This document shows positions 47,093 to 61,723 of a stretch of DNA of 64,000 nt, piece after piece. Position numbers and translations under genes: made by a program. Origin of the DNA: an uncultured Candidatus Saccharibacteria bacterium (GTDB taxonomy: Bacteria; Patescibacteriota; Doudnabacteria; UBA920); contig CAYQEU010000001.1 in NCBI GenBank assembly GCA_964416765.1, positions 212,480-276,479 on the forward strand. Reading direction: 5' to 3'. Position 1 is the first letter of the stretch. Every line of letters begins with the position of its first letter. The notes under the pieces are model-generated. The model was not told where the DNA came from, made no database searches, and saw only the letters and a program-made list of their open reading frames with translations.

Positions 47093-47602
47093 TCATTTAT
47101 AAACGCATAAGTCCATTACTATTGGGTTAACAACCAAATAAATCTGCCACAACAAGAGAATTGAAAATATTAAAAATAGGGTTACAAAAATCAGTTTTTC
47201 TTTTGACCAACGTTCTTTAGCGATGACTGGATATTTTTGTTTAATAATTTCATGGAACTTGCGGAAGAAGGCCACAAGAATATAGGCAAATCCTAAAAAC
47301 AACAAACTTTTTAGTGCCTGATTGCCGGATGTAGTGTGCGGGACTCCGCAGTAAGATTGGGCAAGAAAAATTAAGAGTGATATTTCCGCAGCAACAAAGA
47401 ATAAGGCCCTTAGTACCACAAATCCGGCCATAAACATTATTATGGCGAGCAATGCTATCAATACCACCCCTTCAGTAATTCCTAGAGCTGCAAGGAAATG
47501 GCTTCCAAAATAACGATACCCAAGAAAAAATAGGCCAGTAATCACTAACGAAAAAGCGGCAGGTAGTATATTTTCTTTGCGAAGCAAAAGCTTTATATTC
47601 AT
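47093..47602 (-). CDS. small polytopic membrane protein (operon gene 5)
   Basis: 169 aa with four TM helices. The start overlaps the upstream stop (ATGA). Confidence 0.5.
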   Translation of the reverse strand: MNIKLLLRKENILPAAFSLVITGLFFLGYRYFGSHFLAALGITEGVVLIALLAIIMFMAGFVVLRALFFVAAEISLLIFLAQSYCGVPHTTSGNQALKSLLFLGFAYILVAFFRKFHEIIKQKYPVIAKERWSKEKLIFVTLFLIFSILLLWQIYLVVNPIVMDLCVYK

Positions 47603-48687
47603 AAAAGGTTATTCTTGAGTTTAACATTTTTCTTATCAGCCTGGACGTATTTTAATAAATCCTCCTCCCGCTCCAAGCCCCTGATCCGACCAGATACAAA
47701 GCCAAGGCGATAATCTATTCCTTCACTCATTAAACGCCAATTAGAGCCTTGTAGAGCTTTTTGGATGGCATTCTTCAAGTCTTTCTTACTGGTGTATTCA
47801 TCTCTGCCTTCTTTACTGTCGACGGCAGTAAAACCGACAACAACATCCTTAGTCATCTGAGGCGGCTGAAATTGCATACTAGTATATCCAGCGGCCTCAA
47901 ATACTGGGGCTAGAATTTTCTGGACTTCACCGAACGGTAGCTTTTTTATTTTGGCTATCGCATCGTATAAATCTTTATTTTTATCTCTTTCTTCCCACTC
48001 TTTGGCAAGCCTGCCCATTTCCATCAAGCGATGATATTCTTCAACGGCTTTATCTCCCTTTTCTTTATCAAAACAAAACCGCTTGCGGTCTTCTTCATAG
48101 TGCTCGTCAGGCTTTTCTTCTTTAATATGCAAGTCTAGAGTTTCGACCTCGGCATTGCCGCAACTATCACAGTTGTAAGTTATGGTAATAACTTCTCCGT
48201 TTCTTTCATCTTGGGAAGACATCTCGTGCTGACACTTTAAACACAAGTGAGGCTTAGTTATATATTCTTCGTTGTCCTCATAAAAAGCCCGTCTAGGCAG
48301 GCACTTATTCGGACAATCGTAGAAGAATAGAACCCGCTCAGATTCACCCTTGATGTCAAGGTGTTTGCTTGTACTACTCATCCCGGAGCCGCATTTCAGG
48401 CATTTTACTCCTCTGGGGGCAATAGCGTTCTCTTCGTGTTCATCTCTGCGACGATCGCGCTCCATCCATTCCCGAATAGTTTCTGGCTTGCGCATATATC
48501 GCTCGGCGCATTCGTAATACAGAGTTAGCTGATGGACAACGTATTGGGCATGCTTTTTATCCTTTTCTTGTCCTTCGTATCTGGACATATCCTGATTTAA
48601 CACAGCATCTTCCGATATTCTACATCGGCTGACAGTTATGGAGTCATAGAGGTCGCTATAATAAATTTCGTCTTTAAGATGCTTCAT
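47599..48687 (-). CDS. hypothetical protein with duplicated C4 zinc-ribbon (operon gene 4)
   Basis: Two paralogous segments: CLKCGSGMSS..(~22 aa)..YDCPNKC and CLKCQHEMSS..(~20 aa)..YNCDSCGN. No catalytic motif recognised. Confidence 0.5.
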   Translation of the reverse strand: MKHLKDEIYYSDLYDSITVSRCRISEDAVLNQDMSRYEGQEKDKKHAQYVVHQLTLYYECAERYMRKPETIREWMERDRRRDEHEENAIAPRGVKCLKCGSGMSSTSKHLDIKGESERVLFFYDCPNKCLPRRAFYEDNEEYITKPHLCLKCQHEMSSQDERNGEVITITYNCDSCGNAEVETLDLHIKEEKPDEHYEEDRKRFCFDKEKGDKAVEEYHRLMEMGRLAKEWEERDKNKDLYDAIAKIKKLPFGEVQKILAPVFEAAGYTSMQFQPPQMTKDVVVGFTAVDSKEGRDEYTSKKDLKNAIQKALQGSNWRLMSEGIDYRLGFVSGRIRGLEREEDLLKYVQADKKNVKLKNNLL

Positions 48688-49829
48688 ACTTTTACATCCT
48701 GCACTTCAATGTTATCACCAAAAAATTCTTGGACAAGTTCGTTATATCGATAGAAGTCTCCTAAGATTTTCATTGCAAGCTCGAGATCTAAACTACCATC
48801 TATTCTAAATAATTTAATTTTACTACATTTTATCTTTGTGTCTTCGGCTCCCGAGCTCCATTTATAAGCTACTCTTCTATTATGTTCTTCGGAAGTGTAG
48901 ACCATTACAGCAGGATCAAAGTGTACAAATTTTTCTATATTTTTATTCCAAAGCATATGAACATACTTATGGAGAATATATTTGTTAGACTTAGCTGGTA
49001 TAATTTCTTCTATCTCAATTGATTTCATACCATCTTTAGTATTACTAATATAAAATTCGGTCCTTATTAGCGAATAGGCGAAGTCTAGTAATGGGTCTTC
49101 TGTGCTTCTTGTGTGAATAGTCACTCCCTTAAAATTAGGGTCGTTCATTCTTCCAATACTAAATTTAGGACCAAACCAATGATCCATTTCTATAAGCTCA
49201 CTAACCTGTAATGTACGTGAAATCCTTATAGGATCCAAAGCTAAACTTAGTTCTAAATTTTTATTTTGAGACACTTCTCGCAAGTAGGCAGTTATCTCAG
49301 TGAAATTGACAGAATGGTATCTACGTAGATAAGGATGGTAGTAAATCCTATACATGTTTTTATATATAATATACTGATTTTCTAAACGAAAGTCGGGAGT
49401 TATTTTTACCAATCCATATCTATCAAATTTTAAATCTGTTATAACATCAGACAAGTTAGATTTTCTTATATCCTTGAAAATAAAATCTTCCTTTTTTGGA
49501 TAAAGACTCCAAAGATCGCTCTCAATTAAATGGCAAGCATATACATCGGGAGAATAATTGCTTTTGCTCACCATGAAGTGAACGACAGGGTTATTTATTT
49601 TCAAAAAATCTTCAACCGCCTCAGTAGTAAGTATGCCGACCTGGGCTCTATACATTTCGATTAAGCATCGTAAATTATAACCAATATCTGATTGGGCTTC
49701 CATATAACGATATATCATCAACGGAAAGATGTTTTCATTAGCCAATTCTTTACACAAAATCAAAAGATAATGCTCAGCTGAGCTGAGCATCTTTTTATCA
49801 TTATCGAATATAAATTTAGCAATATTCAT
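48684..49829 (-). CDS. hypothetical protein (operon gene 3)
   Basis: 381 aa, Tyr/Lys-rich and AT-biased codon usage. No recognisable domain. 4-nt overlap with gene 4. Confidence 0.5.
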   Translation of the reverse strand: MNIAKFIFDNDKKMLSSAEHYLLILCKELANENIFPLMIYRYMEAQSDIGYNLRCLIEMYRAQVGILTTEAVEDFLKINNPVVHFMVSKSNYSPDVYACHLIESDLWSLYPKKEDFIFKDIRKSNLSDVITDLKFDRYGLVKITPDFRLENQYIIYKNMYRIYYHPYLRRYHSVNFTEITAYLREVSQNKNLELSLALDPIRISRTLQVSELIEMDHWFGPKFSIGRMNDPNFKGVTIHTRSTEDPLLDFAYSLIRTEFYISNTKDGMKSIEIEEIIPAKSNKYILHKYVHMLWNKNIEKFVHFDPAVMVYTSEEHNRRVAYKWSSGAEDTKIKCSKIKLFRIDGSLDLELAMKILGDFYRYNELVQEFFGDNIEVQDVKV

Positions 49830-49837
49830 TTTAGCAA

Positions 49838-51196
49838 TTAAAAAGGTATATCATCTACAGAAACTTCTTTTTCAACTACCGGCATTAGGTCTTCTGCCTC
49901 TAGCCCCTCTAGCAACAAATTTGTATCTGCCTGTGGCAATTCTTGGACTGTTTTTAACTTTTTCTCAATAGTTCTAGATTTTTTAGCCGCATCTTCAATA
50001 GTATTACTTGCTTCACTCAACTTCTTTTGCGTTTTTTCTAAGATATCTCCAAATCTTCCAAACTCTGTCTTTACAGCTCCCAAAATTGACCAAACTTCTC
50101 CAGAACGTTTTTGAATAGCCAAAGTTCTAAAGCCCATTTGCAAACTATTTAACAGCGCACCTAAAGTCAAAGGGCTAGTAACTATTACTCTGCATTCTCG
50201 CTGGAGCATCTCGCATAATCCCGGCCTTCTGGCAACTTCTGCGTATAAGCTTTCATAAGGTAAAAATAGTATGCCGAAATCAGTGGTATGAGGAGGATTA
50301 ATATACTTATCTCTTATGGATCGTGCCTCTGTTTTGATTCTGATTTCTAGTTGTTTAGAAGCTGCTTCCACTAAATCGGCATCTGCATTTTCATAAGCTT
50401 CTACGAGTCTTTGATAATCTTCTTGCGGAAATTTAGCATCAATAGGCAACCAAATTGGTTGCTTTGAATCATCGGGTCCAGGCAGTTTAATAGCAAATTC
50501 AACACGTTCGTTGCTTCTAGGTTTAGTAGCAACATTTTTATCATATTGCTCAGGATTTAAAATTTGTTCCAAAAGCGAACCTAACTGAACTTCACCCCAT
50601 ATACCCCTAGTTTTTACGTTTGTTAAAACTTTCTTTAAGTCTCCAACACCTAAAGCAAGGTTCTGCATTTCTCCCAAACCTTTATGGACCAATTCCAATC
50701 TGTCGCTTACTAATTTAAATGAGTCTCCAAGTCTGCGTTCTAAGGTAGCGTGCAATTTTTCGTCTACGGTCGCACGCATTTTTTCTAACTTTTCCTCATT
50801 GCCTTTTTGTAGTGAATCTAGCTTTTTCTCAACCACATCTTTTACTTGATCCAGCTTCTTTTCACTCTTATCTGTCAGTCCGGTAATTGTTTTGGATAGA
50901 GCATCAAAGTTCTTATTTTGAGCTTCCGCAAATTCAAAATTTCTTTTATCTACCGAGTCTCCAAAAGTTTTAATGGTATTTGCTAATTCTTCTCTCGTTA
51001 TTTTATTGTTATTCGCTAGCTCGGTCCTATTAGTAGAAAACTCTTCTTTGACCGTTTTTTCGATGCGCTCGATAGTCTTATCAATGCTTGCATTAATACT
51101 TTGCTCAGGGTCAGTATTTTTACTTGCGTTTTTTATGACCAAATAAATAATAAGCCCTTCTAGCAAAACGGTAATAACAAGTAAAATAAGTATCAT
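49838..51196 (-). CDS. rmuC: RmuC-family DNA recombination protein (operon gene 2)
   Basis: N-terminal TM, long coiled coil, and the RmuC signature RGIWGEVQLGSLLEQIL (compare E. coli RmuC ..GNWGEVQLERvLE..). Confidence 0.7.
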   Translation of the reverse strand: MILILLVITVLLEGLIIYLVIKNASKNTDPEQSINASIDKTIERIEKTVKEEFSTNRTELANNNKITREELANTIKTFGDSVDKRNFEFAEAQNKNFDALSKTITGLTDKSEKKLDQVKDVVEKKLDSLQKGNEEKLEKMRATVDEKLHATLERRLGDSFKLVSDRLELVHKGLGEMQNLALGVGDLKKVLTNVKTRGIWGEVQLGSLLEQILNPEQYDKNVATKPRSNERVEFAIKLPGPDDSKQPIWLPIDAKFPQEDYQRLVEAYENADADLVEAASKQLEIRIKTEARSIRDKYINPPHTTDFGILFLPYESLYAEVARRPGLCEMLQRECRVIVTSPLTLGALLNSLQMGFRTLAIQKRSGEVWSILGAVKTEFGRFGDILEKTQKKLSEASNTIEDAAKKSRTIEKKLKTVQELPQADTNLLLEGLEAEDLMPVVEKEVSVDDIPF

Positions 51197-51222: not shown

Positions 51223-54200
51223 TTAAAGAATAGGTTTAATATTCATTTCATCCAATTTTTTCCATAAACTATCCAGAGCTTTTTCCTTGTTTCGATAAAA
51301 AGCACTACCCGTAACACGCCAGAACTCCCAGCCAGCTCTGCGTAATTGCCTTTCTCTTACTTGATCTTCTTCCCAATTCTCTAAAGTATGATATTGGTCA
51401 CCATCGCATTCTACCGCCAATCTAGATTCTTCACCCTGAACAACTAAATCAATTCTATACCCAATTACCGGATATTCAGGTAAGACCTGATATCCTTTAT
51501 CAATCAATAAGTTGCCAACATCAACGGAAAATTGAGAAGCCCTACCAGCGTCAAATTCTTTCTTAAGTGCTTCACGTCCAGCATGCAGTTCTTCTTTCTT
51601 TGGGTCATAGAACCAGTTCAATATCTTATATCTCCAATCATTTTGATTACCCAATGATTCCAAAGGTAAGGAATGGAATAAGAACATCTGATCACGAGCT
51701 CTCGAGGCGGCAACGTTAAATCTACGTTTTGCGTCTTCATTAGTTAACGGTGCTACCGTATCATTTTTGTCATTCGGATTTAAGGCGCGAACCATAGACA
51801 ATAGCATTACATCACGCTCATCGCCTTGAAACTTATAAGCATCACCACACTGAATCTGTCTTTCTTCAATTTCTTTTTCAGTAAGTACGCCTTGAACTAC
51901 GAGATTTCTTATTAACTTTTCAATGTATTTAGCCTGATCTTCAGCTAACAGAGAGATTATTCCAAAAGTGCACAATCGGCCATCGGGACGTTTCTGATAT
52001 TTTGGGTCTTTAAGACACTCCACTAATTTGTTTATAATTGCTTCTGCTTCGGGCTCGTTAACTTTGTTATTAGTATTTTGGTAGCCTTTTTCAATAAACA
52101 CCGGAACCAGTGCAGGCTTTAGTAAGCCCTTAGGATTAGGATAACGCAATGGTTTAAGCTTGCCCTCGTAAATATGGTGATTACTAAATGCAATGATTTC
52201 AGGAACGCATCGGAAGTGTTCATTAAGCTGAATAATATTAGATAGTCTAATTTTGGCTAAATCAAACAAACTAGAAGTAATGGAAAAGCTATCTTTGAAT
52301 GGAATATCAAATAAAAATCTAGAAATTAGCTCAAATATCCTTTCCTGATCTTGAAATATACCTGCGGGGCTTATTTGCTCAGGATCACCTACTACCAAGA
52401 GCTTCTTGCCTAAATACCCAATTGTTAAACCTCGGATATCGCATTGACTTGCTTCATCAAATATCACCACATCAAATAAACCAGGTTTAGGTTCTGCAAA
52501 CATTTGCGCCGCCCGATGCAAAGGCATGATCCAGACAGGTACAGCATTCTTGGCTTCTTTTAGAGCCTCTTGAGCTGCTCTTAAATGTGTAACCGCATAT
52601 TTGCCAGTACCTTTTCCATATTTTTTCATTTCATGCGACCAAGCCATTAAAGCGTCGCGCTGCGGTTTTGTAACCTTATCAATCTGTCTTTGCCAGGCGA
52701 GAACAGTAACCAGTTCTGAATTTAACTGGTATTCCTTTTTCGTAAGTCGTTCAAATCTATTTTGCAATTCGTCAATATCAATATGATCATGGATAGTATC
52801 CAACCATGATTCTAGTCTTGCTATTTTCCATGCCAGTTCTAAATTTTTAGGATAATTTAATTTTTTATGATGTTCTGCAAGTTCTTTTAGGTCAGAAAAA
52901 AGGTTGGGAGCAACTTTAGAAATTCTTGAAGAAATCTCCTTAAGCTTTATGGATTGATTTCTATTCTCATGAATAATGTTCAATTCTTCAAAGGATGCTT
53001 TCCATCCAGATGAACTCCTTTTTTGCAGAGCATCAATTAAGTTTTTAACTATCGGGTGCTTAGTTTTATCATTTACGGAATCTTGTAATTTTAGGGTCCA
53101 TCCGGAAAACAATTTTTCTAACTCGATAAGTTCAAATTTTGCTACTGTGGAAGTAATGATAGCTATGATCCTTTCTATATCAGTAGGACTGGTAAAAGAT
53201 AAGTCCGATAGTTCTTTCGTTTTCTGGCAAAAAGAGTTTATGCTAGCGTATTCATCGGTATAATTTACTATTCTATGCAGACTGGCACATAGTACTTCAA
53301 GTTTTACGATATCTACCAATATATCAAAATCGGGAGATGATTTAAGACCGGAAAAACTCTGTTCAAGTAAAAGTTCAATTTCCTTTTGTGCTTTGATGGC
53401 CTGTACGTAATGGCGGAACAGTTCAACACTTTCCTTTTCAGTAGGTGCACTTCCATTCACCGTGTAAGTTTCTAAGACTTTTTTAGCGATTGAGGGTAAG
53501 AGGATTTTATTTAAAGTAGTTATCTTTCCTCCATTTTTAACTTTTTCAAGTAAAGCATTTACTGCCTTATTTAGATCATTAATAGAAAGTTGCGTTTTAC
53601 CCTCAACTTCGTGACCTAATAAGGCATTGTGACAAGTGCCGATTAAACTTATTTTTTCGGAAATTTTCTCAATTACTGTCCGCCATTTTTCCTTTTCGTG
53701 AGTACTCGAAGCACAAAGATTAAAAATTTCTAACTCATATCCCTCACGAATCGAGTTTAGTAATTTCTTAGCATCTAGCAATTTATTCCATACGCTGGTT
53801 AATTCTGCTGGTTCAAATTCCAGGTTTTTATGATTGAATACTTCGCTAGAGGTTTGAGCTTTATTAGAAAGATCCCTATACGAAGCAAAGGCTTGTAATA
53901 CAGCTTCTTCGTCAGGTAACGTAGATAGCGGGGGTAATTCGTATTTATATAAATCTCTATCCTCTCGGGTTAAATGAGATAATAGTTCATGGCACGCAAC
54001 TATATCTTGATCCGTAAAATCAAGCTCTATCTTAAAATCTATATTATCAGTGAACCAATCAATATCGCCAGTTTTCCTATGTTTATTTACCAGCTGCGCC
54101 GCGTCAATTGGTTTAATGACTTCGTTACCAATATTTATTTCTGCAGTTGAGTCAGTGAGAATATAATGTCGTATCTGATTGGCTAGGTCTGCCTTTTCTG

Positions 54201-55842
54201 CTCGAACATCTTTTAGCTCCTTTCTAAAACGTTCCGCACGTTCCTCGCTAAATTTTGTGTGCCGCTCTCCTAAGTTTGAGCTTATTTCGCTAATTGATTG
54301 CTGGAGAACATCATCTCTCTTTGCAGTTTGGTGAAGTTGAGACACTGCCAAGCTACGAATATTTTCTGGTAGCTTATCTCTTAATACTTCTAGAGCCTTA
54401 CTTGTTTGGGAGGTAACTAAAACCGTCTTACCTTGCGCTAAGAAGCGGGATATTAGATTGGCAATCGTATGACTTTTACCAGTTCCGGGTGGACCTTTAA
54501 CTACAACACCATAATTTGAATCTAAACGTTCGGCAATTCTTTTTTGTTCATCATTCCACGGCAATGGGAAAAAGAGTTCTGATTCAGTAATTGACTTTTG
54601 TGCGGATCCGTCGGAAGATCCACTTTTGGTCTGTTCTTCATAGTCCCCAATAAGATCTTTGATAAACTCGGTGGGCTCAATATCACTTTGTTCTATATCT
54701 CTACGAATAAGTCCGGCGTATTTCGACCACAAGTCATTATTACGCTTACGTGCAAAAATAACTGGGGCATTCCAAATGGCTGGTACTTCTGTCAGCTCAG
54801 GAGCAGTTACCATTTGGTCAGTAAATTTATCTTCGCTATCGGTTGATATGTAATTGATTAGTGTTCTGCTTTGAGTTTTCAGAGATTGCAGATGCCAGAA
54901 ATCGAAAGGATTTGCATTAATTGCATCGGTCCAAGCAATAAGATCCATTTCCGCAGGATTATCCATTTCATACAGAGGAGACGTTTCTACAAATCCTCTA
55001 AACATCGTATCTGCAGAAATCTCAATGACTCGCTTGGAAGCATCAAAGTCAATTGTTAATGGAGTTAGGAAAACAGGAGCGTATATTGCACCCACAGACT
55101 TACTTTGCCACGTAAGAAGACCTTGACCCAACAGAAGCTCATAACTATCACCTTCATTTTTTAGCAATAGTCTTAGCGCATATAATTGATCGTATAAGAG
55201 GTTTGCTTTATAAACCTTTTTAACCTTATTTGCCCAAGGCTCCCAATCGTTTTTAATATAACCCTTTAATAATTTCTCGAGCTCAGGATGATCATTCCAA
55301 TGATCTTCTAGGTACTGAAGTTCAATATGCTCTGGTAAACTCTGTGGGTTGACGGTAACCCAATCTTCCAATATTTTAGGAATTCTTTGACCCTGCTCAT
55401 AGCTCTTTTTAAAATTTTTAAATTCGCTGATCCTATTTTTGTCTTGATCAAAACTTATTTGGCGATCTATTTTTTCTTTAGGCTTTGGCTGTGTAAGTGG
55501 TGTAACTTCTTCAATCCATTCTTCTAAAGCTTTTGGTAATACTGGCGCGCTCTTGATGTTCTTTTTCTCTACACGTAACCAAGCAGCAGACGAAGGGAGA
55601 ACCTCGGTATTACTTTCAGTTTCAAACGGCCTAATAGATAAGTTCTCCACATCTAATGGAAAATCAGCCAACCACCATGGAGATGGTGGGGTTGCAACAT
55701 TTCTAAAATCTCGGACTACTGCATCATCAAGAGATAAAGCCTTTTCTAAGTAAGTAAATAATCTTACTATCTTATTTCCCTGATCACTTATACTTTTAAC
55801 AGTAGGACCTTTTTGTTCTGTAAGAGGTACCTTATCGGACAT
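51223..55842 (-). CDS. 1539-aa SF1 helicase (Upf1/DNA2-like AAA_11/AAA_12) with N-terminal DUF4011-like region and C-terminal DUF559/Vsr-like PD-(D/E)xK endonuclease domain
   Basis: Walker A VVKGPPGTGKSHTIANL. Motif II VVIFDEASQ. Motif III LLVVGDPEQ. Motif VI FNVAASRARDQMFLFHS. C-terminal IGYRIDLVVQGEESRLAVECDGDQYH resembles the DUF559/Vsr nuclease module. Confidence 0.8.
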   Translation of the reverse strand: MSDKVPLTEQKGPTVKSISDQGNKIVRLFTYLEKALSLDDAVVRDFRNVATPPSPWWLADFPLDVENLSIRPFETESNTEVLPSSAAWLRVEKKNIKSAPVLPKALEEWIEEVTPLTQPKPKEKIDRQISFDQDKNRISEFKNFKKSYEQGQRIPKILEDWVTVNPQSLPEHIELQYLEDHWNDHPELEKLLKGYIKNDWEPWANKVKKVYKANLLYDQLYALRLLLKNEGDSYELLLGQGLLTWQSKSVGAIYAPVFLTPLTIDFDASKRVIEISADTMFRGFVETSPLYEMDNPAEMDLIAWTDAINANPFDFWHLQSLKTQSRTLINYISTDSEDKFTDQMVTAPELTEVPAIWNAPVIFARKRNNDLWSKYAGLIRRDIEQSDIEPTEFIKDLIGDYEEQTKSGSSDGSAQKSITESELFFPLPWNDEQKRIAERLDSNYGVVVKGPPGTGKSHTIANLISRFLAQGKTVLVTSQTSKALEVLRDKLPENIRSLAVSQLHQTAKRDDVLQQSISEISSNLGERHTKFSEERAERFRKELKDVRAEKADLANQIRHYILTDSTAEINIGNEVIKPIDAAQLVNKHRKTGDIDWFTDNIDFKIELDFTDQDIVACHELLSHLTREDRDLYKYELPPLSTLPDEEAVLQAFASYRDLSNKAQTSSEVFNHKNLEFEPAELTSVWNKLLDAKKLLNSIREGYELEIFNLCASSTHEKEKWRTVIEKISEKISLIGTCHNALLGHEVEGKTQLSINDLNKAVNALLEKVKNGGKITTLNKILLPSIAKKVLETYTVNGSAPTEKESVELFRHYVQAIKAQKEIELLLEQSFSGLKSSPDFDILVDIVKLEVLCASLHRIVNYTDEYASINSFCQKTKELSDLSFTSPTDIERIIAIITSTVAKFELIELEKLFSGWTLKLQDSVNDKTKHPIVKNLIDALQKRSSSGWKASFEELNIIHENRNQSIKLKEISSRISKVAPNLFSDLKELAEHHKKLNYPKNLELAWKIARLESWLDTIHDHIDIDELQNRFERLTKKEYQLNSELVTVLAWQRQIDKVTKPQRDALMAWSHEMKKYGKGTGKYAVTHLRAAQEALKEAKNAVPVWIMPLHRAAQMFAEPKPGLFDVVIFDEASQCDIRGLTIGYLGKKLLVVGDPEQISPAGIFQDQERIFELISRFLFDIPFKDSFSITSSLFDLAKIRLSNIIQLNEHFRCVPEIIAFSNHHIYEGKLKPLRYPNPKGLLKPALVPVFIEKGYQNTNNKVNEPEAEAIINKLVECLKDPKYQKRPDGRLCTFGIISLLAEDQAKYIEKLIRNLVVQGVLTEKEIEERQIQCGDAYKFQGDERDVMLLSMVRALNPNDKNDTVAPLTNEDAKRRFNVAASRARDQMFLFHSLPLESLGNQNDWRYKILNWFYDPKKEELHAGREALKKEFDAGRASQFSVDVGNLLIDKGYQVLPEYPVIGYRIDLVVQGEESRLAVECDGDQYHTLENWEEDQVRERQLRRAGWEFWRVTGSAFYRNKEKALDSLWKKLDEMNIKPIL

Positions 55843-55952: not shown

Positions 55953-56594
55953 TTATTTATTTACGACCCATTCAGCTGGTAGATAACCAGAAAGACCTAC
56001 TTTATCTTTATCAACGTCGTTAACTCCAGCGAGAATCCTCACTCTTCGGTACGGAAAACTTTTATCAATGAGCTGTACTTTTGATCCGTTGCCTACACAA
56101 AATGCACCGGGAATTTCTAAAAGGCCTAGAAAATCTTTGGCTGCAAGAGCCTTGCCGATAGCTTCAGCGTCATCTTTAGTTTTACCAAGACAGATATTTT
56201 GATCAGTGCCGTCGTATCCCGGAATACGAAGATAACCTTGATCACCAACTTTCATACTTTCCCAATCCCCACCGGTTGCAGCGGTAGTAGCAGGTTGATT
56301 ACCATTTTGAATTTCTGCGGACTTTTGTCGGGCACTATCTTTTGAGCTGCTGGCTATACCAATAACAATTGGCAGTCCAAACAATAAAAGTAGTGCGGTT
56401 AATACTTTATGCCTGCTGAACCAGTTTCTTAAATCACTCTGACACTGGGGACACTTCTTGGCCGTGGCATTGATTTCTGATTTGCAATGCGGACACACCT
56501 TAGTTGCTTGCATTCTTGTAGCATGGTCTTTCCGGCAAACGGATAAACAAAAGGGGCTACCCGCTTGCCTGACAGCCCCTTTCGGAACTGCCAA
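55953..56594 (-). CDS. Zn-ribbon membrane protein (N-terminal CPHC..CPQC, one TM, extracytoplasmic domain)
   Basis: CPHCKSEINATAKKCPQCQ then a TM (VLTALLLLFGLPIVIGIA). The start is ambiguous between M1 at 56594 and M28 at 56513. Confidence 0.45.
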   Translation of the reverse strand: MAVPKGAVRQAGSPFCLSVCRKDHATRMQATKVCPHCKSEINATAKKCPQCQSDLRNWFSRHKVLTALLLLFGLPIVIGIASSSKDSARQKSAEIQNGNQPATTAATGGDWESMKVGDQGYLRIPGYDGTDQNICLGKTKDDAEAIGKALAAKDFLGLLEIPGAFCVGNGSKVQLIDKSFPYRRVRILAGVNDVDKDKVGLSGYLPAEWVVNK

Positions 56595-57057
56595 CCAACC
56601 TTTCGGCTGGTGACCATGCTACTGGAAGCAAGACGGATAGCCGCCTTCATGTAGCATGGTTCTTGCGCCATACCTCGCATTTCTACGAGGGTTAGGACAT
56701 TAATTTGTTAAGCTAATTATACGATATTTTGACGATTCCGTATAATCCCGTCCATCCTATACTATTCCCCTGATTTTGCGAAGTCCCAAGTTATCAACAA
56801 GTTTTCTTGCGTTTCCAAAGGCTTTATGGTAATTTTTAAATACAAATTAATACATGCGAGGTTCTGCCCGGTTTCGCTCAGATTTTCCCGGAAGTAGTAC
56901 GCACCTATCACTGCGGTACTTCCAGACTCAGGATTCATAGACCCATGTTGGGGTACAACACCTTTTGGTGTCGTACTTCCACGTCCGTGGCCTCAAAGAA
57001 GTAACCGACCCAAAGGGGTCGGATTTTTGTTAATAGGCCGCGAGAAAGAAAAAATAT

Positions 57058-58341
57058 ATGGCAACGAATAAGTTGCAAATCCAGCAAGTTAGTATTGGAC
57101 TGCTTAAGCCCGCGCTTTATAACCCGAGGAAACACACGCCTCAGGCTATGGAGCAATTAAAAGCATCGATTAAGAGGTTCGGGTTAGTCGATCCCATTAT
57201 CGCCAATGGTGCTGCAAGCAGAAAGAATATTGTCATAGGAGGACACTTTAGACTGAAAGCTGCTAAAGAACTTGGATATAAACAAGTTCCGGTAGTTTAC
57301 TTAAACATTCCAAATGTTAAAAAAGAAACTGAATTAAATCTTCGGCTCAACCGCAATACGGGAGAATGGGATTTCGAGCTACTCAAGTCCTTCGATATGG
57401 ATCTGCTGCTGGATGTCGGCTTTGATGATACCAACCTTTCAAGTATTTGGAATGATACGCTGCAAACTGAGGATGATGAATTCGACGTTGAAAAAGAATT
57501 AAAGAAAACCAAGAAACCGAAAACCAAACCGGGCGAAATCTACCAGCTCGGCAGCCATAGATTAATCTGCGGCGATTCAACAAACGTAGATGTTGTAAAA
57601 ATCTTACTTGGCAAAAATCAGGCTGACATGGTTTACTGCGATCCGCCTTTCAATATTTCTCTGGACTACGACAAAGGCATCGGCAACAATGTTGGCAAAT
57701 ACGGCGGAATTCATACCAATGATAACCGGACGGATTTGGAATATCGCAAGTTCCTCAAAGCAACAATGGAAAATGGCTTAGCAGTTTCCAAGAAAAATTT
57801 ACACATATTCTACTTCTCCGACGAAACCTACATCGGTATGATCCAATCTTTATTTGCAGAATTAGGCCTGCAAAATCGTAGGGTTTGTATGTGGGTAAAG
57901 AATAACCAAAACCCTACACCGCAAATTGCTTTCAACAAGGTCTATGAACCAGTAACCTATGCGACCCGAGGCAATCCATACCTCGCTAAGATCGTGACTA
58001 ATCTTAACGAGATTTTGAATAAGGAGGTAGGTACTGGCAACCGTGTCCATGACGATATTTTAGACCTCTTTAATATCTGGCTCGCCAAGCGCAAAGCCGG
58101 ACAAGATTACAACCACCCAACCGAGAAACCGCCAACGCTTCATGAGAAAGCTTTGCGCCGTTGCACTAAACCTGGCAATTTAGTCTTAGATTTATTCGGC
58201 GGTAGTGGATCAACTTTGGTTGCGTGCGAGCAGCTCAAGCGCAAGTGCTTCTTGGTAGAATTCGAACCGATCTTTTGCGATCTGATTATTAAGCGTTTTG
58301 AAAAGCTAACGGGCATTAAAGCCAAGAAGTATGAAAACTAA
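57058..58341 (+). CDS. ParB-like nuclease domain fused to DNA N6-adenine/N4-cytosine methyltransferase (beta-class)
   Basis: ParB/Srx box IVIGGHFRLKAAKELG. MTase motif IV VYCDPPFN precedes motif I DLFGGSGST. Confidence 0.8.
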   Translation: MATNKLQIQQVSIGLLKPALYNPRKHTPQAMEQLKASIKRFGLVDPIIANGAASRKNIVIGGHFRLKAAKELGYKQVPVVYLNIPNVKKETELNLRLNRNTGEWDFELLKSFDMDLLLDVGFDDTNLSSIWNDTLQTEDDEFDVEKELKKTKKPKTKPGEIYQLGSHRLICGDSTNVDVVKILLGKNQADMVYCDPPFNISLDYDKGIGNNVGKYGGIHTNDNRTDLEYRKFLKATMENGLAVSKKNLHIFYFSDETYIGMIQSLFAELGLQNRRVCMWVKNNQNPTPQIAFNKVYEPVTYATRGNPYLAKIVTNLNEILNKEVGTGNRVHDDILDLFNIWLAKRKAGQDYNHPTEKPPTLHEKALRRCTKPGNLVLDLFGGSGSTLVACEQLKRKCFLVEFEPIFCDLIIKRFEKLTGIKAKKYEN

Positions 58342-58747
58342 GCAGCAAAAACAACTGCTTCTAGAGCAGCTCAAGAAAACGCCAATTGTTCAGGTTGCCT
58401 GTGAAAAGACTGGGGTCGGCAGGGCAACCTACTATCGCTGGATGAAAGATGATAAAGCCTTTGCCAAAGAGGCCGAAGAAGCCTTGCAAGCTGGAAGTCT
58501 CATGGTCAACGATATGGCTGAAAGCCAGCTTATGGCAGCCATTCGGGATAAAAATATGACGGCAATTATCTTTTGGCTGAAACACCATCATCCGACCTAC
58601 GGCACGAGAATAGAAATAAACGGACACTTAAAAACTTCTTTTGAAGAATTAACACCAGAGCAAGAAGCCTTAGTCCGTAAGGCTTTGAGGCTCGCAGCCT
58701 TGGATACTAATACCTATGATAATGGAAACACAAAACATACTCCCTGA
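58331..58747 (+). CDS. terminase small subunit-like HTH protein
   Basis: N-terminal HTH (VACEKTGVGRATYYRW). 138 aa. Overlaps the TerL start. Confidence 0.45.
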   Translation: MKTKQQKQLLLEQLKKTPIVQVACEKTGVGRATYYRWMKDDKAFAKEAEEALQAGSLMVNDMAESQLMAAIRDKNMTAIIFWLKHHHPTYGTRIEINGHLKTSFEELTPEQEALVRKALRLAALDTNTYDNGNTKHTP

Positions 58748-60233
58748 CCTCATTACTAAGATCATCAAGGACAAAGCAGTCAGAATTCAGGTAACTACAC
58801 AAAGCCACTTTTGGTTTTTCAACGTCTACTTTAGCGATTACGTAAGATATCAGACTGCCCCTTTCCAGCGAGAAATGTTTGCACTGAGCGAAGACGAAAC
58901 GATAAAAAATTTGGTTGTAGTGGCATTTCGCGGGTCTGGCAAAACCACCATATTTAATCAATCGTATCCGCTTTGGGCGATCCTCGGAAAACAACAGAAG
59001 AAATTCGTTCTTATACTTGCCGAGACTATGAATCAAGCCCGGCAAATATTAAAAAATATCAAGGAAGTTTTAGAAACCAATGACTTGCTTCGCAGAGACT
59101 TAGGGCCGTTCACTGAGGAGGAAACGAGGAACTCATCTACCATTAACTTCCTCAATTACAAAGCCAAAATTATGGTTGCTTCCAAAGAAAGCAGCATTCG
59201 CGGTATTAAGCACGGAGCACATCGGCCAGATTTGATCATCCTCGACGATATTGAAGATATTAATTCTGTTAAAACCCGCGAATCGAGAAACAACACATAT
59301 ACCTGGCTGACTGGAGATGTAATGCCGCTCGGCGACCCAAAGACTCGCCTGATCTTTATTGGTAATCTTCTGCATGAAGACTCACTCTTAATGCGGCTTA
59401 AAAATGGCATAGATGAAGGTAAGCTACGGGGTCAATATCGGCTATACCCTTTGGTGCAAGATGACAAAATTTTATGGCCCGGCATGTACCCAACAATGGA
59501 CGATATCGAGCAGTTGAGATTAAGCCAGGGAAACGAAATTGCATTCCAACGCGAGTACATGCTTAGAATTATTCCGGATGAAGACTGGGTAGTACAACCT
59601 GAGTGGATACAATACTACGACGTACTGCCAGACAGCAAATACCATGACTACACCTGTATTGGCATCGACCTTGCTATTTCAGAAAAAGAAGCTGCTGATT
59701 ATACTGCCATGGTACCGGCATTGGTAACCGGCAACAGAGATAATTTGAAAGTTTTTATCTTGCCCATGATTATTAACAAACGGCTAACGTTCTTAGAAAC
59801 ACAGGAGGAAGCAAAAAATCTCTCTATGGGTATTGGGAGCGGCAGGCGTGCAAAAATCTATGTCGAAGATGTTGCGTATCAGCGGGCATTCATCCAAGCG
59901 ATACACGCTGCCGGATTTCCTGTAAAAGGCGTTTCAGTGCACGGCCAAGACAAACGCGCAAGGCTTAATGCCAATGTATACCTTGTCCAAGCTGGCAAAG
60001 TTTTCTTTCCGACAAAAGGTGCAGAACTTCTAATCCAGCAACTCGTTCATTTTGGCGTGGAAAAGCATGATGACTTAGCAGACGCTTTTGGCATACTGCT
60101 ATCCAAAATCATTGAGGAAGATAACAAGGGAGGTATGGTCATAACTGGAACTTCGTACAGAAACCGATCGGACTGGAATACGCTCAACAGCAGGCAAAAA
60201 CATATGTTACAGGAAAGACACGGGGGTTATTAG
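58716..60233 (+). CDS. phage terminase large subunit (Terminase_6-like)
   Basis: ATPase P-loop VVAFRGSGKTT. Walker B LIILDDIEDI. C-terminal RNaseH-like nuclease acidic residues (VEDVAY.., HDDLADAF). Confidence 0.75.
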   Translation: MIMETQNILPDLITKIIKDKAVRIQVTTQSHFWFFNVYFSDYVRYQTAPFQREMFALSEDETIKNLVVVAFRGSGKTTIFNQSYPLWAILGKQQKKFVLILAETMNQARQILKNIKEVLETNDLLRRDLGPFTEEETRNSSTINFLNYKAKIMVASKESSIRGIKHGAHRPDLIILDDIEDINSVKTRESRNNTYTWLTGDVMPLGDPKTRLIFIGNLLHEDSLLMRLKNGIDEGKLRGQYRLYPLVQDDKILWPGMYPTMDDIEQLRLSQGNEIAFQREYMLRIIPDEDWVVQPEWIQYYDVLPDSKYHDYTCIGIDLAISEKEAADYTAMVPALVTGNRDNLKVFILPMIINKRLTFLETQEEAKNLSMGIGSGRRAKIYVEDVAYQRAFIQAIHAAGFPVKGVSVHGQDKRARLNANVYLVQAGKVFFPTKGAELLIQQLVHFGVEKHDDLADAFGILLSKIIEEDNKGGMVITGTSYRNRSDWNTLNSRQKHMLQERHGGY

Positions 60234-60415
60234 AGCCTAAAAAGTTACCAACAGGGCGTCCTGGACGCATCAAGAGGGTTCTGGCATCAATATACCGTAA
60301 GGAAAATTAACAATTCTTGCGGTAAGACCGCTGACAATAAGGCAAAACAGCGGATAGAGCGTGTAATATCACCTTTCCTAAACCTTTTTAGGCATGGAAG
60401 CAAAACCTTCCAGAG

Positions 60416-61723
60416 ATGCGCCGCAAGCCCAAAACAATGGAATTAGTACCAACCCAAACCAAATATTGCCTGTATGCTCGTAAGAGTACTGAGGACTCTT
60501 CCGAAAAACAGGCTTTGTCCATAGATTCTCAGGTCAAAGAAATGCTGGCTATTGCCGAGCGCGAAAATCTAGATGTCATAGACATTCGCCGCGAAGCCCA
60601 TTCGGCTAAGGATTCAGGACAGCGGCCAGTATTCCGCGAGCTATTATCGGATATTCGAAGCGGCAGGTTTAATGGTATTTTGACGTGGGCGCCGGATCGA
60701 CTGAGCCGTAATGCCGGAGACTTAGGGTCGGTGGTCGATTTAATGGATGAGAAGCTGCTAGTGGAAATAAAGACGTACGGCCAAACATTTAAGAATTCAC
60801 CGAACGAAAAGTTTTTACTGATGATTCTTTGCAGTCAAGCGAAACTAGAAAACGATAACAAGAGTATTAATGTAAAAAGAGGTTTGAGGACAAGATGCGA
60901 AATGGGATTATGGCCAGCCCCTGCGCCCATGGGTTACTTAAACGAAAAGAAAGTTGATAGAAAAGGCTATTTGATAATTGATCAAGAGCGTGCGCCAATT
61001 ATCAAACAAATGTTTGAAAAAGTAGCTTACGAAAAATGGAGCGGCCGCAAACTTTATCATTGGCTGAAGTTCGACCTTAATTTTAAAACTCCATTAGGCA
61101 ATAAAGGGTTAACCTTAAGCAATATTTACATAATTCTTCAAAATACTTTTTATTATGGCGATTTTGAGTTTCCCAGAAAAAGCGGTATCTGGTACAAAGG
61201 CAAGCACGAACCAATAATTAGTAAGGAACTGTTTGGCTTAGTTCAAGAACAAGTCAGGACGAATGTTATAAGGGTGGAAGACAAAGAATTTGCTTTTACA
61301 AAACTAATGACCTGCGGTTTATGCGGTTCGGGTGTTTCAGCTGATGAGAAATTCAAGAAGCAGAAAAACGGAAATATTCACCGCTATATCTATTACGGCT
61401 GCACGAAATCCCGAGACAAACACTGCAAAAGTGGGTATATTTCTGAAGATGATTTAATCACACAACTAGAAAAACTAGTGGATAAAGTTGACTTCAGCGA
61501 AGCAGATATTAAAGAGAAAATAAAGCATGAGGTAACGCGCTTCAAAAAGTTCCAGCAGTATGTAATTGGCGCAAAAGAAAAAATAGTTATCGGGAATATT
61601 GATATTCAAAACTATACGAAGTTTATTTTTAGGGAGGGTAGCAATACCGAGAAACGTGAACTGCTTACTTGTTTTAAAAACGATATACAAATTAATAGCA
61701 AGGAGGTTATCTTAGTCCAATAA
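60416..61723 (+). CDS. large serine recombinase (integrase/resolvase family)
   Basis: Catalytic motif YARKSTEDS..Q, recombinase domain, and Zn-ribbon CGLCGSG..YYGC. 435 aa. Confidence 0.8.
   Translation: MRRKPKTMELVPTQTKYCLYARKSTEDSSEKQALSIDSQVKEMLAIAERENLDVIDIRREAHSAKDSGQRPVFRELLSDIRSGRFNGILTWAPDRLSRNAGDLGSVVDLMDEKLLVEIKTYGQTFKNSPNEKFLLMILCSQAKLENDNKSINVKRGLRTRCEMGLWPAPAPMGYLNEKKVDRKGYLIIDQERAPIIKQMFEKVAYEKWSGRKLYHWLKFDLNFKTPLGNKGLTLSNIYIILQNTFYYGDFEFPRKSGIWYKGKHEPIISKELFGLVQEQVRTNVIRVEDKEFAFTKLMTCGLCGSGVSADEKFKKQKNGNIHRYIYYGCTKSRDKHCKSGYISEDDLITQLEKLVDKVDFSEADIKEKIKHEVTRFKKFQQYVIGAKEKIVIGNIDIQNYTKFIFREGSNTEKRELLTCFKNDIQINSKEVILVQ

Follow-up and report, generated by a model that had tools for sequence, protein, structure and literature searches.

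The right-hand part of the stretch of DNA analysed here (the window; 64,000 nt) carries an integrated island that belongs to a large, CPR-wide family, in which a packaging module and a serine integrase are combined with swappable anti-phage cargo and virus-particle genes are absent. We consider it likely that this island is a satellite-like integrative element with its own terminase and borrowed capsids, one unit extending from position 46,958 to beyond 64,000. No description of the family was found in the literature searched.

The first 33 kb of the window hold housekeeping genes (MreB, PGK, GAPDH, PBP and others), and 33-47 kb is host DNA syntenic with relatives; the Ddl protein encoded in the window has its nearest matches in Patescibacteria. 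GC content falls from 0.495 (1-46,957) to 0.396 (46,958-64,000), and 1-kb windows of host (mean 0.496, sd 0.026) and island (mean 0.395) clearly differ (Mann-Whitney p=1.8e-9). A first-pass annotation of this DNA had seen a sharp compositional change from ~47.1 kb; sliding-window GC bears out the change itself, while its position is 46,958. The island span given there (47093-61723) has to be redrawn at both ends, as sequence comparison places the left edge at 46,958, directly after a tRNA remnant, and the right edge beyond 64,000. The left end comprises:

46950..46957, − strand: tRNA-Gln(UUG) 3'-end remnant (ttggctgg on the + strand), at the left, recombinase-distal junction
46958..47047, + strand: island left-end segment, opening with the box CCTCCTCGGTCGCGG, which appears again as CCTCCTCGG at 47033
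47015..47108, + strand: conserved backbone end motif, core 47051-47079 AATGAGACAAATAAGACACTATAAAAAGG

In an alignment with a related contig, identity stops after the last 7 nt of tRNA-Gln, which are all that the window keeps of this gene. Three loci without the island (L007, L008 and L014), ~85% identical in nucleotide sequence and syntenic to window positions 33,000-46,957, have the CAAX protease, tRNA-Gln and UPRTase genes adjacent; in L007, an intact tRNA-Gln(ttg) lies between the other two. A different genome (L176) has the identical tRNA-Gln junction, GACCGAGGAGG meeting CCAGCCAAG, in reverse complement, at a related island end. At the level of sequence, these comparisons show insertion into the 3' end of tRNA-Gln(UUG) in the chromosome of a small-genome Patescibacteria (CPR) bacterium. 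Comparison with related genomes lacking the island had been suggested in the first-pass annotation; the att direct repeats that it suggested looking for at the island edges do not exist in the window, the real target being the tRNA-Gln 3' end.

The left-end segment is ~75 nt long, shows scattered tRNA-like identity and is homologous to the island end of L176. Other loci also have CTCGG(G)TC boxes close to each end of the island. The CTCGGTC boxes of the two ends are in direct orientation, whereas serine integrases would be expected to use inverted half-sites. The core of the end motif consists of two AATGAGACA-type 9-mers, with an inverted TGTCTCA following at 47089-47095. Searches with blastn-short and nhmmer found this motif in 22 other island loci, on the + strand every time, and in no phage locus. 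In 21/22 loci it lies upstream of the cassette described below, past variable cargo, which places the cargo inside the element. The motif could serve as a pac site, an operator or an accessory site for recombination.

Right of 61,723, GC remains low, and the sequence contains pieces of an IS256-family transposase, another LOOT RNA and part of a reverse-transcriptase gene. Since no sequence up to 64,000 matches the DNA flanking the empty site, the island runs off the window. With the right end (tRNA body, attR) thus outside, it is by extrapolation from relatives that the full >17 kb is taken as one element and that virion genes are taken to be lacking past 64,000 as well.

The core of the island consists of a co-oriented cassette followed by a recombinase gene:

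57058..58341, + strand: ParB_N–N6/N4 DNA methyltransferase fusion (ParB-MTase; ParB_N+N6_N4_Mtase in Pfam, PHROG), first cassette gene
58331..58747, + strand: TerS-like HTH protein (phrog_4044 8e-9, PF13022)
58716..60233, + strand: TerL, large terminase subunit (phrog_38 3e-82), ATPase and nuclease motifs intact
60416..61723, + strand: large serine recombinase (Resolvase+Recombinase+Zn_ribbon_recom; phrog_95 1e-65)

The order ParB-MTase–(MTase)–TerS–TerL recurs in ~135 loci, with hosts that are almost all Patescibacteria. We surveyed the best 80 GTDB species loci and ~45 IMG/VR loci, representing at least 80 species genomes, with flanks of up to 10 kb; the cassette order is the same in all, and most also have the recombinase. 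Among the TerL loci, ParB-MTase is present in 91/94 and the TerS-like gene, whose reading frame here overlaps the genes on both sides, in 94/94; a serine recombinase lies near the cassette in 68 of these first 94 loci. The core is conserved and under purifying selection (pS 0.59-0.89 versus pN 0.04-0.21). ParB-MTase has a DPPF motif at residue 195 and a dN/dS of 0.03 relative to L006, and the Walker A/B and nuclease acidic residues of TerL are invariant (36 sequences). In an NJ tree, drawn without support values, 127 island TerLs form one clade apart from 23 portal-linked phage TerLs.

Virion genes are consistently missing. None is detectable in the 64-kb window, where six-frame searches with the portal and capsid proteins from the closest genuine phages gave zero matches, in agreement with the first-pass report of no portal, capsid or tail genes. 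The relatives with TerL identities of 83, 81, 71, 59 and 57% all have MTase–TerS–TerL and no portal. No head or tail family is among the top PHROGs or Pfams of 518 neighbour-protein clusters, and portal and MCP queries match phage loci only, never an island locus. As a positive control, phages with 34-42% TerL identity carry portal, protease and MCP right after TerL.

Across the family, a fixed backbone emerges: end motif, variable cargo, often an S24 repressor of the LexA/CI type or else a small membrane protein preceded by LOOT, then the co-oriented cassette, large serine recombinase and target tRNA. The S24 repressor, present in 20 family loci, is absent from the window's island. Cargo varies greatly among loci and includes type III and IIG R-M, CBASS, SNF2 helicases and helicase-nucleases. 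Some contigs have tandem or double cassettes, and one member (L026) was assembled as a 17,290-bp circle with one ORF spanning the junction.

The recombinase presumably integrates and excises the island at the tRNA site. Its best NCBIfam match is CcrB (1.2e-33, far under cut-off), and the first tRNA downstream of the recombinase faces it, in convergent orientation, in 16/16 loci. tRNA targeting is unusual for serine integrases, so there may be a tyrosine integrase past the window end at this locus.

Upstream of the cassette, and again near the window end, lie RNA elements and a small gene:

55953..56513, − strand: Zn-ribbon single-pass membrane protein (Zn-ribbon profile matches)
56571..56698, − strand: LOOT RNA copy 1 (Rfam RF03000; 59.9 bits, gathering score 46.4)
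56845..57032, + strand: structured leader directly upstream of the cassette, with an intrinsic terminator at its end
63227..63350, + strand: LOOT RNA copy 2 (58.2 bits, gathering score 46.4), inverted relative to copy 1

The membrane-protein gene probably starts at ATG 56513 (MQATKVCPHC...), leaving 57 nt to LOOT copy 1; an alternative start at TTG 56594 is disfavoured, as the spacing of ATG 56513 to LOOT fits other loci. Homologues of the protein occupy the same position in L001, L005, L006, L026, L042, L062 and L095, as does LOOT copy 1 in the first four of these. The two LOOT copies show compensatory differences, and the ORF list holds no credible ORF downstream of copy 2. Both RNAs, like the end motif, are part of the island backbone. 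In the leader (MFE -59.3 kcal/mol, z=-2.64; no Rfam match), a terminator scan identified 57005-57022 plus the T run, and all but one of ~180 columns match L006, compared with ~78% identity for the flanking genes.

Two further features flank LOOT copy 2:

61756..63090, − strand: IS256/Mutator-family transposase, split (61756-62664, 62704-63090; PF00872 4e-11, NF033543 2e-18)
63491..64000, − strand: reverse transcriptase, C-terminal part, cut by the window end (RVT_1 1.8e-9)

In L051, L056, L058 and L059, LOOT follows the recombinase by 35-55 nt; here, the transposase is probably a secondary insertion between the two, and no clear IS terminal repeats were found around its fragments. The reverse-transcriptase fragment is island cargo, with generic RT/UG-type PADLOC matches and homologues near the cassette in 5 other loci.

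The main cargo is a five-gene operon:

51223..55842, − strand: SF1 helicase (AAA_11/AAA_12) with C-terminal MTES_1575/DUF559 endonuclease, 1539 aa, heading the operon
49838..51196, − strand: RmuC-family protein, nuclease-type, with coiled-coil N-terminus (PF02646 7.6e-74)
48684..49829, − strand: protein without assigned function, 381 aa, with a homologue in the circular element L026
47599..48687, − strand: CPR-specific Zn-ribbon protein, 362 aa, a semi-conserved island gene
47093..47602, − strand: protein without assigned function, 169 aa, last gene of the operon

With these, every gene listed in the first-pass annotation (TerS-like, TerL, ParB-MTase, serine recombinase, Zn-ribbon membrane protein and operon) was recovered. 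The helicase-nuclease matches PADLOC PDC-S37 (4.7e-67) and NCBIfam ProA-like (2e-76) and Hhe-like (5e-45) models. It resembles these defence proteins in joining a giant SF1 helicase to a nuclease of Vsr/MTES_1575 type at the C-terminus; it differs in that its NCBIfam scores are far under the curated cut-offs (258 bits versus 1500; 153 versus 2000) and that it heads an operon with RmuC and three unknown proteins. We infer that the operon is a defence system, an Hhe/ProA/PDC-S37-like candidate. The RmuC protein matches PADLOC RTasRmuC (7e-12). Neither the 169-aa nor the 381-aa protein has a Pfam, PHROG, PADLOC, NCBIfam or PDB match. For the 362-aa protein, >435 homologues were found, none with a Pfam domain; all those with an organism in the source name are from Patescibacteria lineages. 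Its AlphaFold model (pLDDT 90) has no significant PDB fold match. Homologues of several cargo genes adjoin the cassette elsewhere: the helicase-nuclease in L049, L061, L076, L085 and L112; the 362-aa gene in L051, L060, L061, L066, L094, L122 and L176; and the 169-aa gene in L047, L083 and L137.

As a satellite, the island would be integrated and excised at the tRNA by its recombinase. After induction, its TerS and TerL would single out island DNA for packaging into procapsids of a helper phage from the related portal-bearing CPR phage lineage. Pre-methylation by the methyltransferase(s) could allow this DNA to survive restriction in the next host, and the cargo (the Hhe/ProA-like helicase-nuclease, RmuC and three unknown proteins) would protect the carrier cell. 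Both the packaging into borrowed capsids and the induction step are inferred. Against this reading, known satellites usually have a replication module, and none is recognisable in the window or in the conserved family core. A satellite TerL must also dock on a foreign portal, and one conserved TerL clade across the phylum sits uneasily with diverse helpers.

Other readings place the same genes in different roles. The terminase, MTase and recombinase might be leftovers of a temperate phage whose structural genes were deleted, the helicase operon being a moron or later insertion. The core genes are indeed phage-derived, the real phages with 34-42% TerL identity also have ParB-MTase upstream of TerL, and the IS fragments at 61.7-63.1 kb do represent some decay. 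However, the same gene set and edges occur in ~135 loci, no island locus has kept a portal or MCP, and one member is a 17.3-kb circle. Independent decay would not be expected to leave the same 4-5 intact genes in every locus surveyed, nor a monophyletic TerL under purifying selection, and a decayed prophage, which the first-pass annotation had entertained, is largely refuted and now scarcely credible. A stacking of separate acquisitions (helicase operon, cassette, IS/RT region) at a tRNA hot spot would account for the heterogeneous GC (0.372 in the cargo operon, 0.422 in the cassette), the mosaic identity to L006 (ParB-MTase 93% aa, TerL 71%), the IS insertion here and the tandem elements elsewhere. 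Yet both the tRNA junction and the end motif of the backbone are external to the cargo operon, and L176 has the same 362-aa gene at its junction end, the cassette at the opposite side and different cargo between. This layout indicates that cargo is swapped within a single frame, not that elements were placed next to each other, and makes stacking very improbable.

The MTase–TerS–TerL cassette could itself be an anti-phage module, either R-M-like or acting by packaging interference, with the terminase nuclease cutting or hijacking the concatemers of invading phages and the MTases shielding self DNA. Its carrier would be a defence island that is mobilised by the recombinase and spreads in some other way. 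The nuclease/ATPase is invariably accompanied by one or two MTases, defence genes surround the cassette, and satellites such as SaPI and PLE are known to interfere with helper packaging. Such a function has no precedent, however; PADLOC has no match for TerS or TerL, related phages normally have ParB-MTase with TerS/TerL in this arrangement and use it for packaging, and the island would be left without any transfer route. We regard this proposal as improbable. Finally, the cassette may be a domesticated packaging engine, with TerS/TerL initiating packaging in situ at the island, in the manner of gene transfer agents or lateral transduction. The island plus adjacent chromosome would then travel in helper capsids, chiefly spreading defence genes, and the recombinase would merely anchor or rearrange the locus. 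The absence of a replication module and the fixed orientation of the end motif, pointing into the island, are consistent with this idea, as is lateral transduction of defence islands, documented in other bacteria (PMC12829572). Instead, the polymorphic insertion, the variety of tRNAs targeted, the existence of tandem copies and one circular form indicate an autonomous excising element, and GTA-type capsid genes are absent; in-situ packaging is thus unlikely, if conceivable.

The satellite reading with helicase-nuclease cargo, also put forward in the first-pass annotation, is therefore the one we favour, although "PICI-like" is an analogy and not membership, because the island does not have the gene sets that define PICI, cfPICI, P4 and PLE. 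Like a cfPICI, it is an integrated satellite encoding TerS and TerL that would package its own DNA and borrow part of a helper virion, and defence cargo is often carried. The 11 cfPICI core genes include capsid, protease, portal, head-tail adaptor/connector and HNH (PMC10085698), all absent here; the island also lacks AlpA and primase, has a large serine recombinase as its presumed integrase, and resides in Patescibacteria rather than Proteobacteria or Firmicutes. PICIs/SaPIs are likewise site-specifically integrated islands of ~12-20 kb with their own small terminase subunit and accessory/defence genes, without structural and lysis genes, and have a repressor, as do relatives of our island (S24, 20 loci). 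PICIs, however, depend on the TerL of the helper and possess capsid-morphogenesis genes, a primase-replicase and regulators of the Stl or AlpA type (PMC10085698), whereas the island encodes TerL, has no replication module and counts one or two MTases among its core genes.

PLE integrates in VCR repeats, not tRNA, and is confined to Vibrio cholerae and phage ICP1; it encodes a replication initiator of its own and lacks TerL. It is nevertheless a satellite with anti-phage activity and large-serine-recombinase integration/excision (PMC6002521). SCC elements (Ccr, e.g. SCCmec) similarly use large serine recombinases to move cargo into the 3' end of a conserved gene and lack transfer machinery of their own; unlike the island, they have no terminase/MTase module, target rlmH rather than tRNA and are found in staphylococci. 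The CPR temperate Caudoviricetes (L148-L174) have ParB-MTase upstream of a TerL that is 30-49% identical to island TerLs; they differ in that their TerL is immediately followed by genes for portal, protease and major head protein and belongs to a separate clade. These phages are the source lineage of the packaging module.

The base composition of the window changes sharply near 47.1 kb, as the first-pass annotation had noticed. In a sliding profile, GC is 0.495 at 1-46,957 and 0.396 at 46,958-64,000; 1-kb windows of host DNA have a GC of 0.496 ± 0.026 (minimum 0.441), and those of the island reach at most 0.445 (Mann-Whitney p = 1.8e-9). GC is also uneven inside the island, with values of 0.372 in the minus-strand operon (47.1-55.8 kb) and 0.422 in the terminase cassette. 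The first 33 kb of the window are taken up by housekeeping genes (MreB, glycolysis and pentose-phosphate enzymes, RsmH, MraZ, PBPs), and 33-47 kb is host DNA syntenic with related contigs. The Ddl protein is nearest to Doudna-, Zambryski- and 'Patescibacteria group' proteins, and the host is, on sequence grounds, a Patescibacterium.

Through the flanking GTPase protein of the window, we reached contigs that are ~85% identical in DNA to, and collinear with, window 33,000-46,957. Comparison with relatives that lack the island, as had been proposed at the outset, revealed an empty site in three of these contigs (L007, L008 and L014), where a CAAX protease gene is directly followed by tRNA-Gln(UUG) and a UPRTase gene. 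Identity with the window ends after the final 7-8 nt of tRNA-Gln (ttggctgg, 46,950-46,957), and the first island base is 46,958. The other side of the empty site has no match anywhere in 47-64 kb of the window, and the elements 3' of the large serine recombinase (LSR), namely a split IS256-family transposase, the second of two LOOT RNAs (Rfam RF03000) and a truncated reverse transcriptase, are all of low GC; hence, the island must extend beyond the window. A genomic island at a tRNA gene is recognized by its absence from related genomes and by a junction in the 3' end of the tRNA, and both are seen here. The island first proposed is therefore real, with a left edge 135 bp to the left of where it had been drawn and a right edge past the window. 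The att direct repeats suggested for its edges were sought and not recovered: direct or inverted repeats joining 46,880-47,150 with 60,200-64,000 amount to chance 10-mers. At locus L176, from another genome, the island end reads GACCGAGGAGG joined to CCAGCCAAG. Reverse-complemented, this sequence is identical to the window junction, and the host flank beyond it differs from that of the window; the recombination is thus site-specific. Within the host region, ~960 bp (44864-45824) have no counterpart in the related contigs (17 bp in L007). This stretch, with a GC of 0.433, short ORFs only and a weak, sub-threshold Rfam match to P9 (45743-45853), is possibly a small separate insertion.

The features of the island within the window are as follows.

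47,015-47,108, non-coding: end motif of ~90 nt, with a core of two AATGAGACA-type repeats plus TATAAAAAGG, and an inverted TGTCTCA
47,093-55,842, minus strand (cargo operon): SF1 helicase with C-terminal MTES_1575 nuclease, 1539 aa
Same operon: RmuC
Three ORFs without any family match
Zn-ribbon membrane protein
56,571-56,698, minus strand: LOOT copy 1, 59.9 bits
56845-57032, plus strand: structured leader of ~180 nt with an intrinsic terminator, just 5' of the ParB-MTase start
57058-60233 (cassette): ParB_N–N6/N4 methyltransferase (ParB-MTase)
Same cassette: TerS-like HTH protein
Same cassette: TerL (phrog_38, 3e-82)
60416-61723, plus strand: LSR (PF00239 7e-20, PF07508 5e-14, PF13408 8e-9)
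61756-63090, minus strand: IS256/Mutator-family transposase, split into 302-aa and 128-aa ORFs
63,227-63,350, plus strand: LOOT copy 2, 58.2 bits
63491-64000, minus strand: reverse transcriptase, C-terminal 162 aa only

Domain and family matches confirmed every gene named in the first-pass annotation. The recombinase combines the Resolvase catalytic, Recombinase and Zn-ribbon/coiled-coil domains that characterize an LSR. The transposase copy, around which no clear IS256 terminal inverted repeats were found, probably parts the LSR from LOOT copy 2, since the two are neighbours in L051, L056, L058 and L059. A compact (~368-aa) reverse transcriptase also lies near the cassette in L067 (1425-2531) and four other loci; the best PADLOC matches of the window protein are generic RT and UG-type, and it may be defence-associated. 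With portal and capsid proteins of the nearest phages as queries, the six-frame translated window gave no match. Likewise, PHROGs, Pfam and portal/MCP queries detected no portal, major capsid, tail or lysis genes in the window or in ~135 island loci, and the reported absence of portal, capsid and tail genes from the window holds.

We then asked how widely this arrangement occurs. The window TerL is only ~25% identical to those of deposited phages (tblastn; N4-like and others), and thus has no close cultured relative; in metagenomes, its relatives number in the thousands. Scans of viral, genome and metagenome collections with the single TerL sequence gave no match, and the family loci come from alignment-based TerL profile scans. 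Eight independent neighbourhoods, with TerLs 83%-52% identical, all carry a (ParB-)MTase (in some cases two MTases), then TerS and TerL, followed by an LSR, host genes or defence genes and never by a portal. With one genome per species, the profile scan yielded at least 433 TerL-positive stretches, and there are >3,600 TerL clusters, a figure that lumps island and phage copies together. The best 80 of these stretches are almost all from Patescibacteria (Kuenen-, Dojka-, Falkow-, Sacchari-, Peri- and Paceibacteria, Morani-, Woese- and Gracilibacteria, and others), some automated 'Gammaproteobacteria' host labels looking unreliable. Gene order is constant across 94 TerL loci, every one of which has TerS, 91 an MTase and 68 an LSR; the LSR is the immediate next gene in 30 of 80 loci. 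IMG/VR contributed ~45 further cassette loci, and verified examples of the island type come from at least 80 species genomes. The window locus belongs to a large family of islands that is specific to one major radiation of bacteria, and the family is apparently new to the literature: a full-text search, of incomplete coverage such that an earlier description is possible, found no account of this architecture in CPR bacteria. Tandem full-length TerL paralogues lie between TerS and LSR in L033, L043, L096, L107, L115, L116, L117, L121 and L149. Between the window and L006, another island, the ParB-MTase protein is 93% identical and TerL only 71%, and relatives L001 and L005 rank the two in reverse. 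These mosaic identities point to recombination within the cassette.

The first-pass annotation had weighed a phage satellite or PICI-like element against a decayed prophage. Phage loci in IMG/VR with TerLs 34-42% identical to that of the window have portal, protease and major-head genes directly 3' of TerL. When these phage proteins were used as queries, portal/MCP homologues turned up in 24 phage loci and in no cassette locus; with the positive control working in the phages and virion genes absent from the island as far as it lies in the window, a complete tailed prophage was rejected. In a neighbour-joining tree of TerL, all 127 island sequences form one pure clade and 23 portal-linked sequences another, the tree being rooted on a Delftia phage and without support values, and pairwise identities overlapping between the groups. 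A defective prophage should show pseudogenes or relaxed selection among its remaining phage genes. Here the ORFs are intact; the Walker A/B and nuclease acidic residues of TerL are invariant in 36 sequences including the window; and comparison of the window with L006, L001 and L005 gives pN of 0.04-0.21 against pS of 0.59-0.89, a range in which synonymous sites are saturated (ParB-MTase dN/dS 0.03). Invariant catalytic residues and pN well below pS exclude random prophage decay, and the 'decayed prophage' reading was abandoned in favour of a conserved family under purifying selection, with intact motifs and no virion genes. We also considered an intervening element of the sporulation 'skin' type, which is at odds with a Patescibacterium as host and a tRNA as target.

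The islands vary widely in their cargo. Neighbouring ORFs (728) fall into 518 clusters, among the most recurrent of which are an S24 repressor (LexA/CI-type) divergent from the MTase (20 loci) and a protein of 280 aa without known function (18 loci); SNF2 helicases, a P-type ATPase, type IIG R-M, reverse transcriptase and a 362-aa protein also recur. Relatives carry type III R-M (L001), type IIG R-M (L016, L046), HKD-SNF2, DrmD-like helicases and CBASS. The window's own helicase, RmuC and 381-, 362- and 169-aa genes each recur near the cassette elsewhere, in varying combinations. Because the conserved end motif lies outside the cargo operon, the cargo is framed by backbone on both sides and is thus part of the element, exchanged within it, in agreement with the initial view of the helicase-nuclease module as island cargo. 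Against the NCBIfam equivalogs, the helicase scores 258 bits for ProA (cut-off 1500) and 153 for Hhe (cut-off 2000), the alignment covering the helicase and nuclease parts only and not extending to the DUF4011 N-terminal region or the whole-protein score that membership entails. It is therefore related to the Hhe/ProA defence families and not a member; it is also related to PDC-S37. The 362-aa Cys-rich protein (47599-48687, minus strand) is one of >435 family members, and every homologue with a named source comes from Patescibacteria. Its model (pLDDT 90) shows a helical hairpin, a Cys-rich β domain and a ferredoxin-like C-terminus, and has no significant fold match in the PDB. This protein often occupies the recombinase-distal island end whatever the cargo, as in L176 (10001-11092), where CBASS is carried.

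Several non-coding elements are shared as well. The end motif recurs in 22 other loci, in constant orientation and never in phages, and its GAGACA repeats are ~90-97% conserved over 30 nt, when proteins of the same elements are only ~50% identical. CTCGG(G)TC boxes lie near both island ends in direct orientation (46958-47047 at the left end of the island). Motif and boxes are candidates for a pac site, an operator or an accessory recombination site. The two LOOT copies exceed the gathering threshold of the RF03000 covariance model (46.4 bits), are inverted, flank the cassette and differ by compensatory changes; LOOT in five relatives scores 58-93 bits. A model built from seven copies gave 29 matches in 28 other island loci (L001, L005, L006, L017, L026 and 23 more). 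LOOT very often adjoins the LSR. It usually precedes a same-strand start codon by 50-90 nt, a spacing from which we moved the start of the Zn-ribbon gene in the window to ATG 56,513, and the gene that follows mostly encodes a small Zn-ribbon or membrane-anchored protein, occasionally a nuclease-like one. From this pattern, LOOT looks like a cis-acting leader for the cargo ('moron') genes of the islands. A DNA recombination site resembling integron attC was considered and set aside, as GNRA-type loops, compensatory stem changes and the constant 50-90 nt spacing fit a transcribed leader. The structured leader upstream of the ParB-MTase was seen in two elements only, the window and L006, which differ there at one position, with neighbouring genes ~78% identical. 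It folds better than shuffled sequences (z=-2.6), has no match in Rfam, and is possibly a new regulatory RNA or attenuator.

Evidence on mobility comes from the position of tRNA genes and from one circular relative. When 60 loci were scanned, the first tRNA downstream of the LSR was encoded on the other strand, its 3' end pointing toward the LSR, in 16 of 16 cases, at 0.1-9 kb (Ser, Gln, Glu and Asp tRNAs); three inverted arrangements mirror the pattern. No tRNA gene was found in the 64-kb window, and by the facing pattern the tRNA-Gln of this island has to be on the minus strand and right of the LSR. L026 (JAFGMD010000010.1, a Candidatus Falkowbacteria MAG) is 17,334 bp long with a 44-bp terminal direct repeat. 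When it is circularized (17.3 kb), a 412-codon ORF for an RHS-core-like toxin with signal peptide runs intact across the junction. It holds the Zn-ribbon gene, LOOT, the cassette, two tandem LSRs and unknown genes, with no housekeeping gene recognized by Pfam, and is likely an episomal or excised family member. Such a circle, here in a relative, corresponds to the excised forms for which the first-pass annotation had proposed to look. An attP was sought in the boxes near tRNA ends, in the junctions of L071, L053 and L020 and in circular L026, and none could be defined: an LSR of the integrase type is expected to have an attP/attB pair with inverted half-sites around a 2-nt crossover, whereas the left junction falls within the last 7-8 nt of tRNA-Gln, the boxes are direct and not inverted half-sites, and the right junction lies past 64,000. 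There are also contigs with two cassettes. In L053 (700-5400), an apparent mini-element (end motif, LSR, tRNA-Arg(tct)) precedes another copy of this tRNA and a full cassette, which may reflect integration in tandem accompanied by duplication of the tRNA.

With its integrase, complete packaging enzyme and one or two MTases, the element lacks capsid, tail, lysis and recognizable replication genes. A satellite-like island is the most economical model. The LSR would excise and integrate the island at the tRNA, with the attP circle predicted to join the island right end to CCTCCTCGGTC; TerS/TerL would pack island DNA into helper procapsids, the helper plausibly coming from the sister phage lineage; the MTase(s) would protect transferred DNA; and the defence cargo would pay for carriage. 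Inferred island sizes are ~12.7 kb (L071), 17.3 kb (L026) and ~17.5 kb (L051), and related phage contigs are 34-60 kb, a ratio typical of satellites. Regulation varies, many members having the S24 (SOS-type) repressor and the window and L006 the structured leader instead. Weak points of the model are that there is no replication module and that a foreign portal must accept the island TerL. We are highly confident that this is a conserved mobile island family in tRNA genes. For packaging in borrowed capsids, which draws indirect support from intact TerS/TerL, the lack of capsid genes and the circular form, we see the balance as roughly even, and the explanation as a whole, with both layers, strikes us as moderately probable. 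More tentatively, and with doubts that slightly outweigh our belief, ancient, phylum-wide, capsid-less, terminase-bearing satellites might be the main defence vehicle in Patescibacteria, with a tRNA-targeting LSR clade, self-packaging without a replication module and LOOT-headed, outward-facing cargo. Were this joint reading true, the orphan LOOT RNA would be a satellite-encoded regulatory leader.

CPR bacteria (Patescibacteria) represent a large part of bacterial diversity, with genomes of <1 Mb and few CRISPR systems, and to our knowledge little has been learned of their mobile elements and gene exchange. The island family offers a concrete route for the horizontal spread of defence systems in this group, and the ParB-MTase–TerS–TerL–recombinase series a practical marker for new defence genes in CPR genomes. 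The orphan LOOT RNA gains a genomic home, and serine integrases with short conserved tRNA targets could serve as genome-engineering tools. Many capsid-less islands are already filed as viral contigs in IMG/VR (L104-L147), presumably because of the TerL hallmark. Their listing probably gives rise to false 'CPR phage' calls and is a warning for virus-mining pipelines.

How does the island compare with known satellites? Core-gene definitions are available for four families, PICI, cfPICI, P4-like and PLE (PMC10085698). The PICI core comprises an integrase, an Stl/AlpA-type regulator, a primase-replicase, a capsid-morphogenesis gene and TerS, with no TerL (PMC10085698). The island shares only the integrase, of serine type, and TerS; it lacks matches to a primase, AlpA/Stl or capsid morphogenesis and does have TerL, which places it outside the PICIs. 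Thus, of the initial 'satellite or PICI-like' proposal, the satellite-like part is supported, and 'PICI-like' holds as an analogy and not as membership. Like cfPICIs, the island encodes both TerS and TerL. However, the cfPICI core includes its own capsid, protease, portal, head-tail adaptor/connector and HNH genes (PMC10085698), whereas the island has no head, portal or connector genes and so falls outside this definition too. Nor is it P4-like, as none of psu, delta, sid, alpA, epsilon and the alpha primase, the core of that family (PMC10085698), has a PHROG/Pfam match among island proteins. PLEs, defined by ~25 conserved proteins and RepA in Vibrio cholerae (PMC10085698), share only a large serine recombinase integrase with the island, whose host is a Patescibacterium and whose proteins lack matching annotations (the distinction being drawn by annotation). 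If its DNA is indeed packaged in helper capsids, the island would add to the known ways of pirating a phage a fifth architecture, one that brings the motor along and steals the shell. SCC elements are likewise cargo cassettes moved by an LSR at the 3' end of a conserved gene; to this plan, the island adds a packaging motor.
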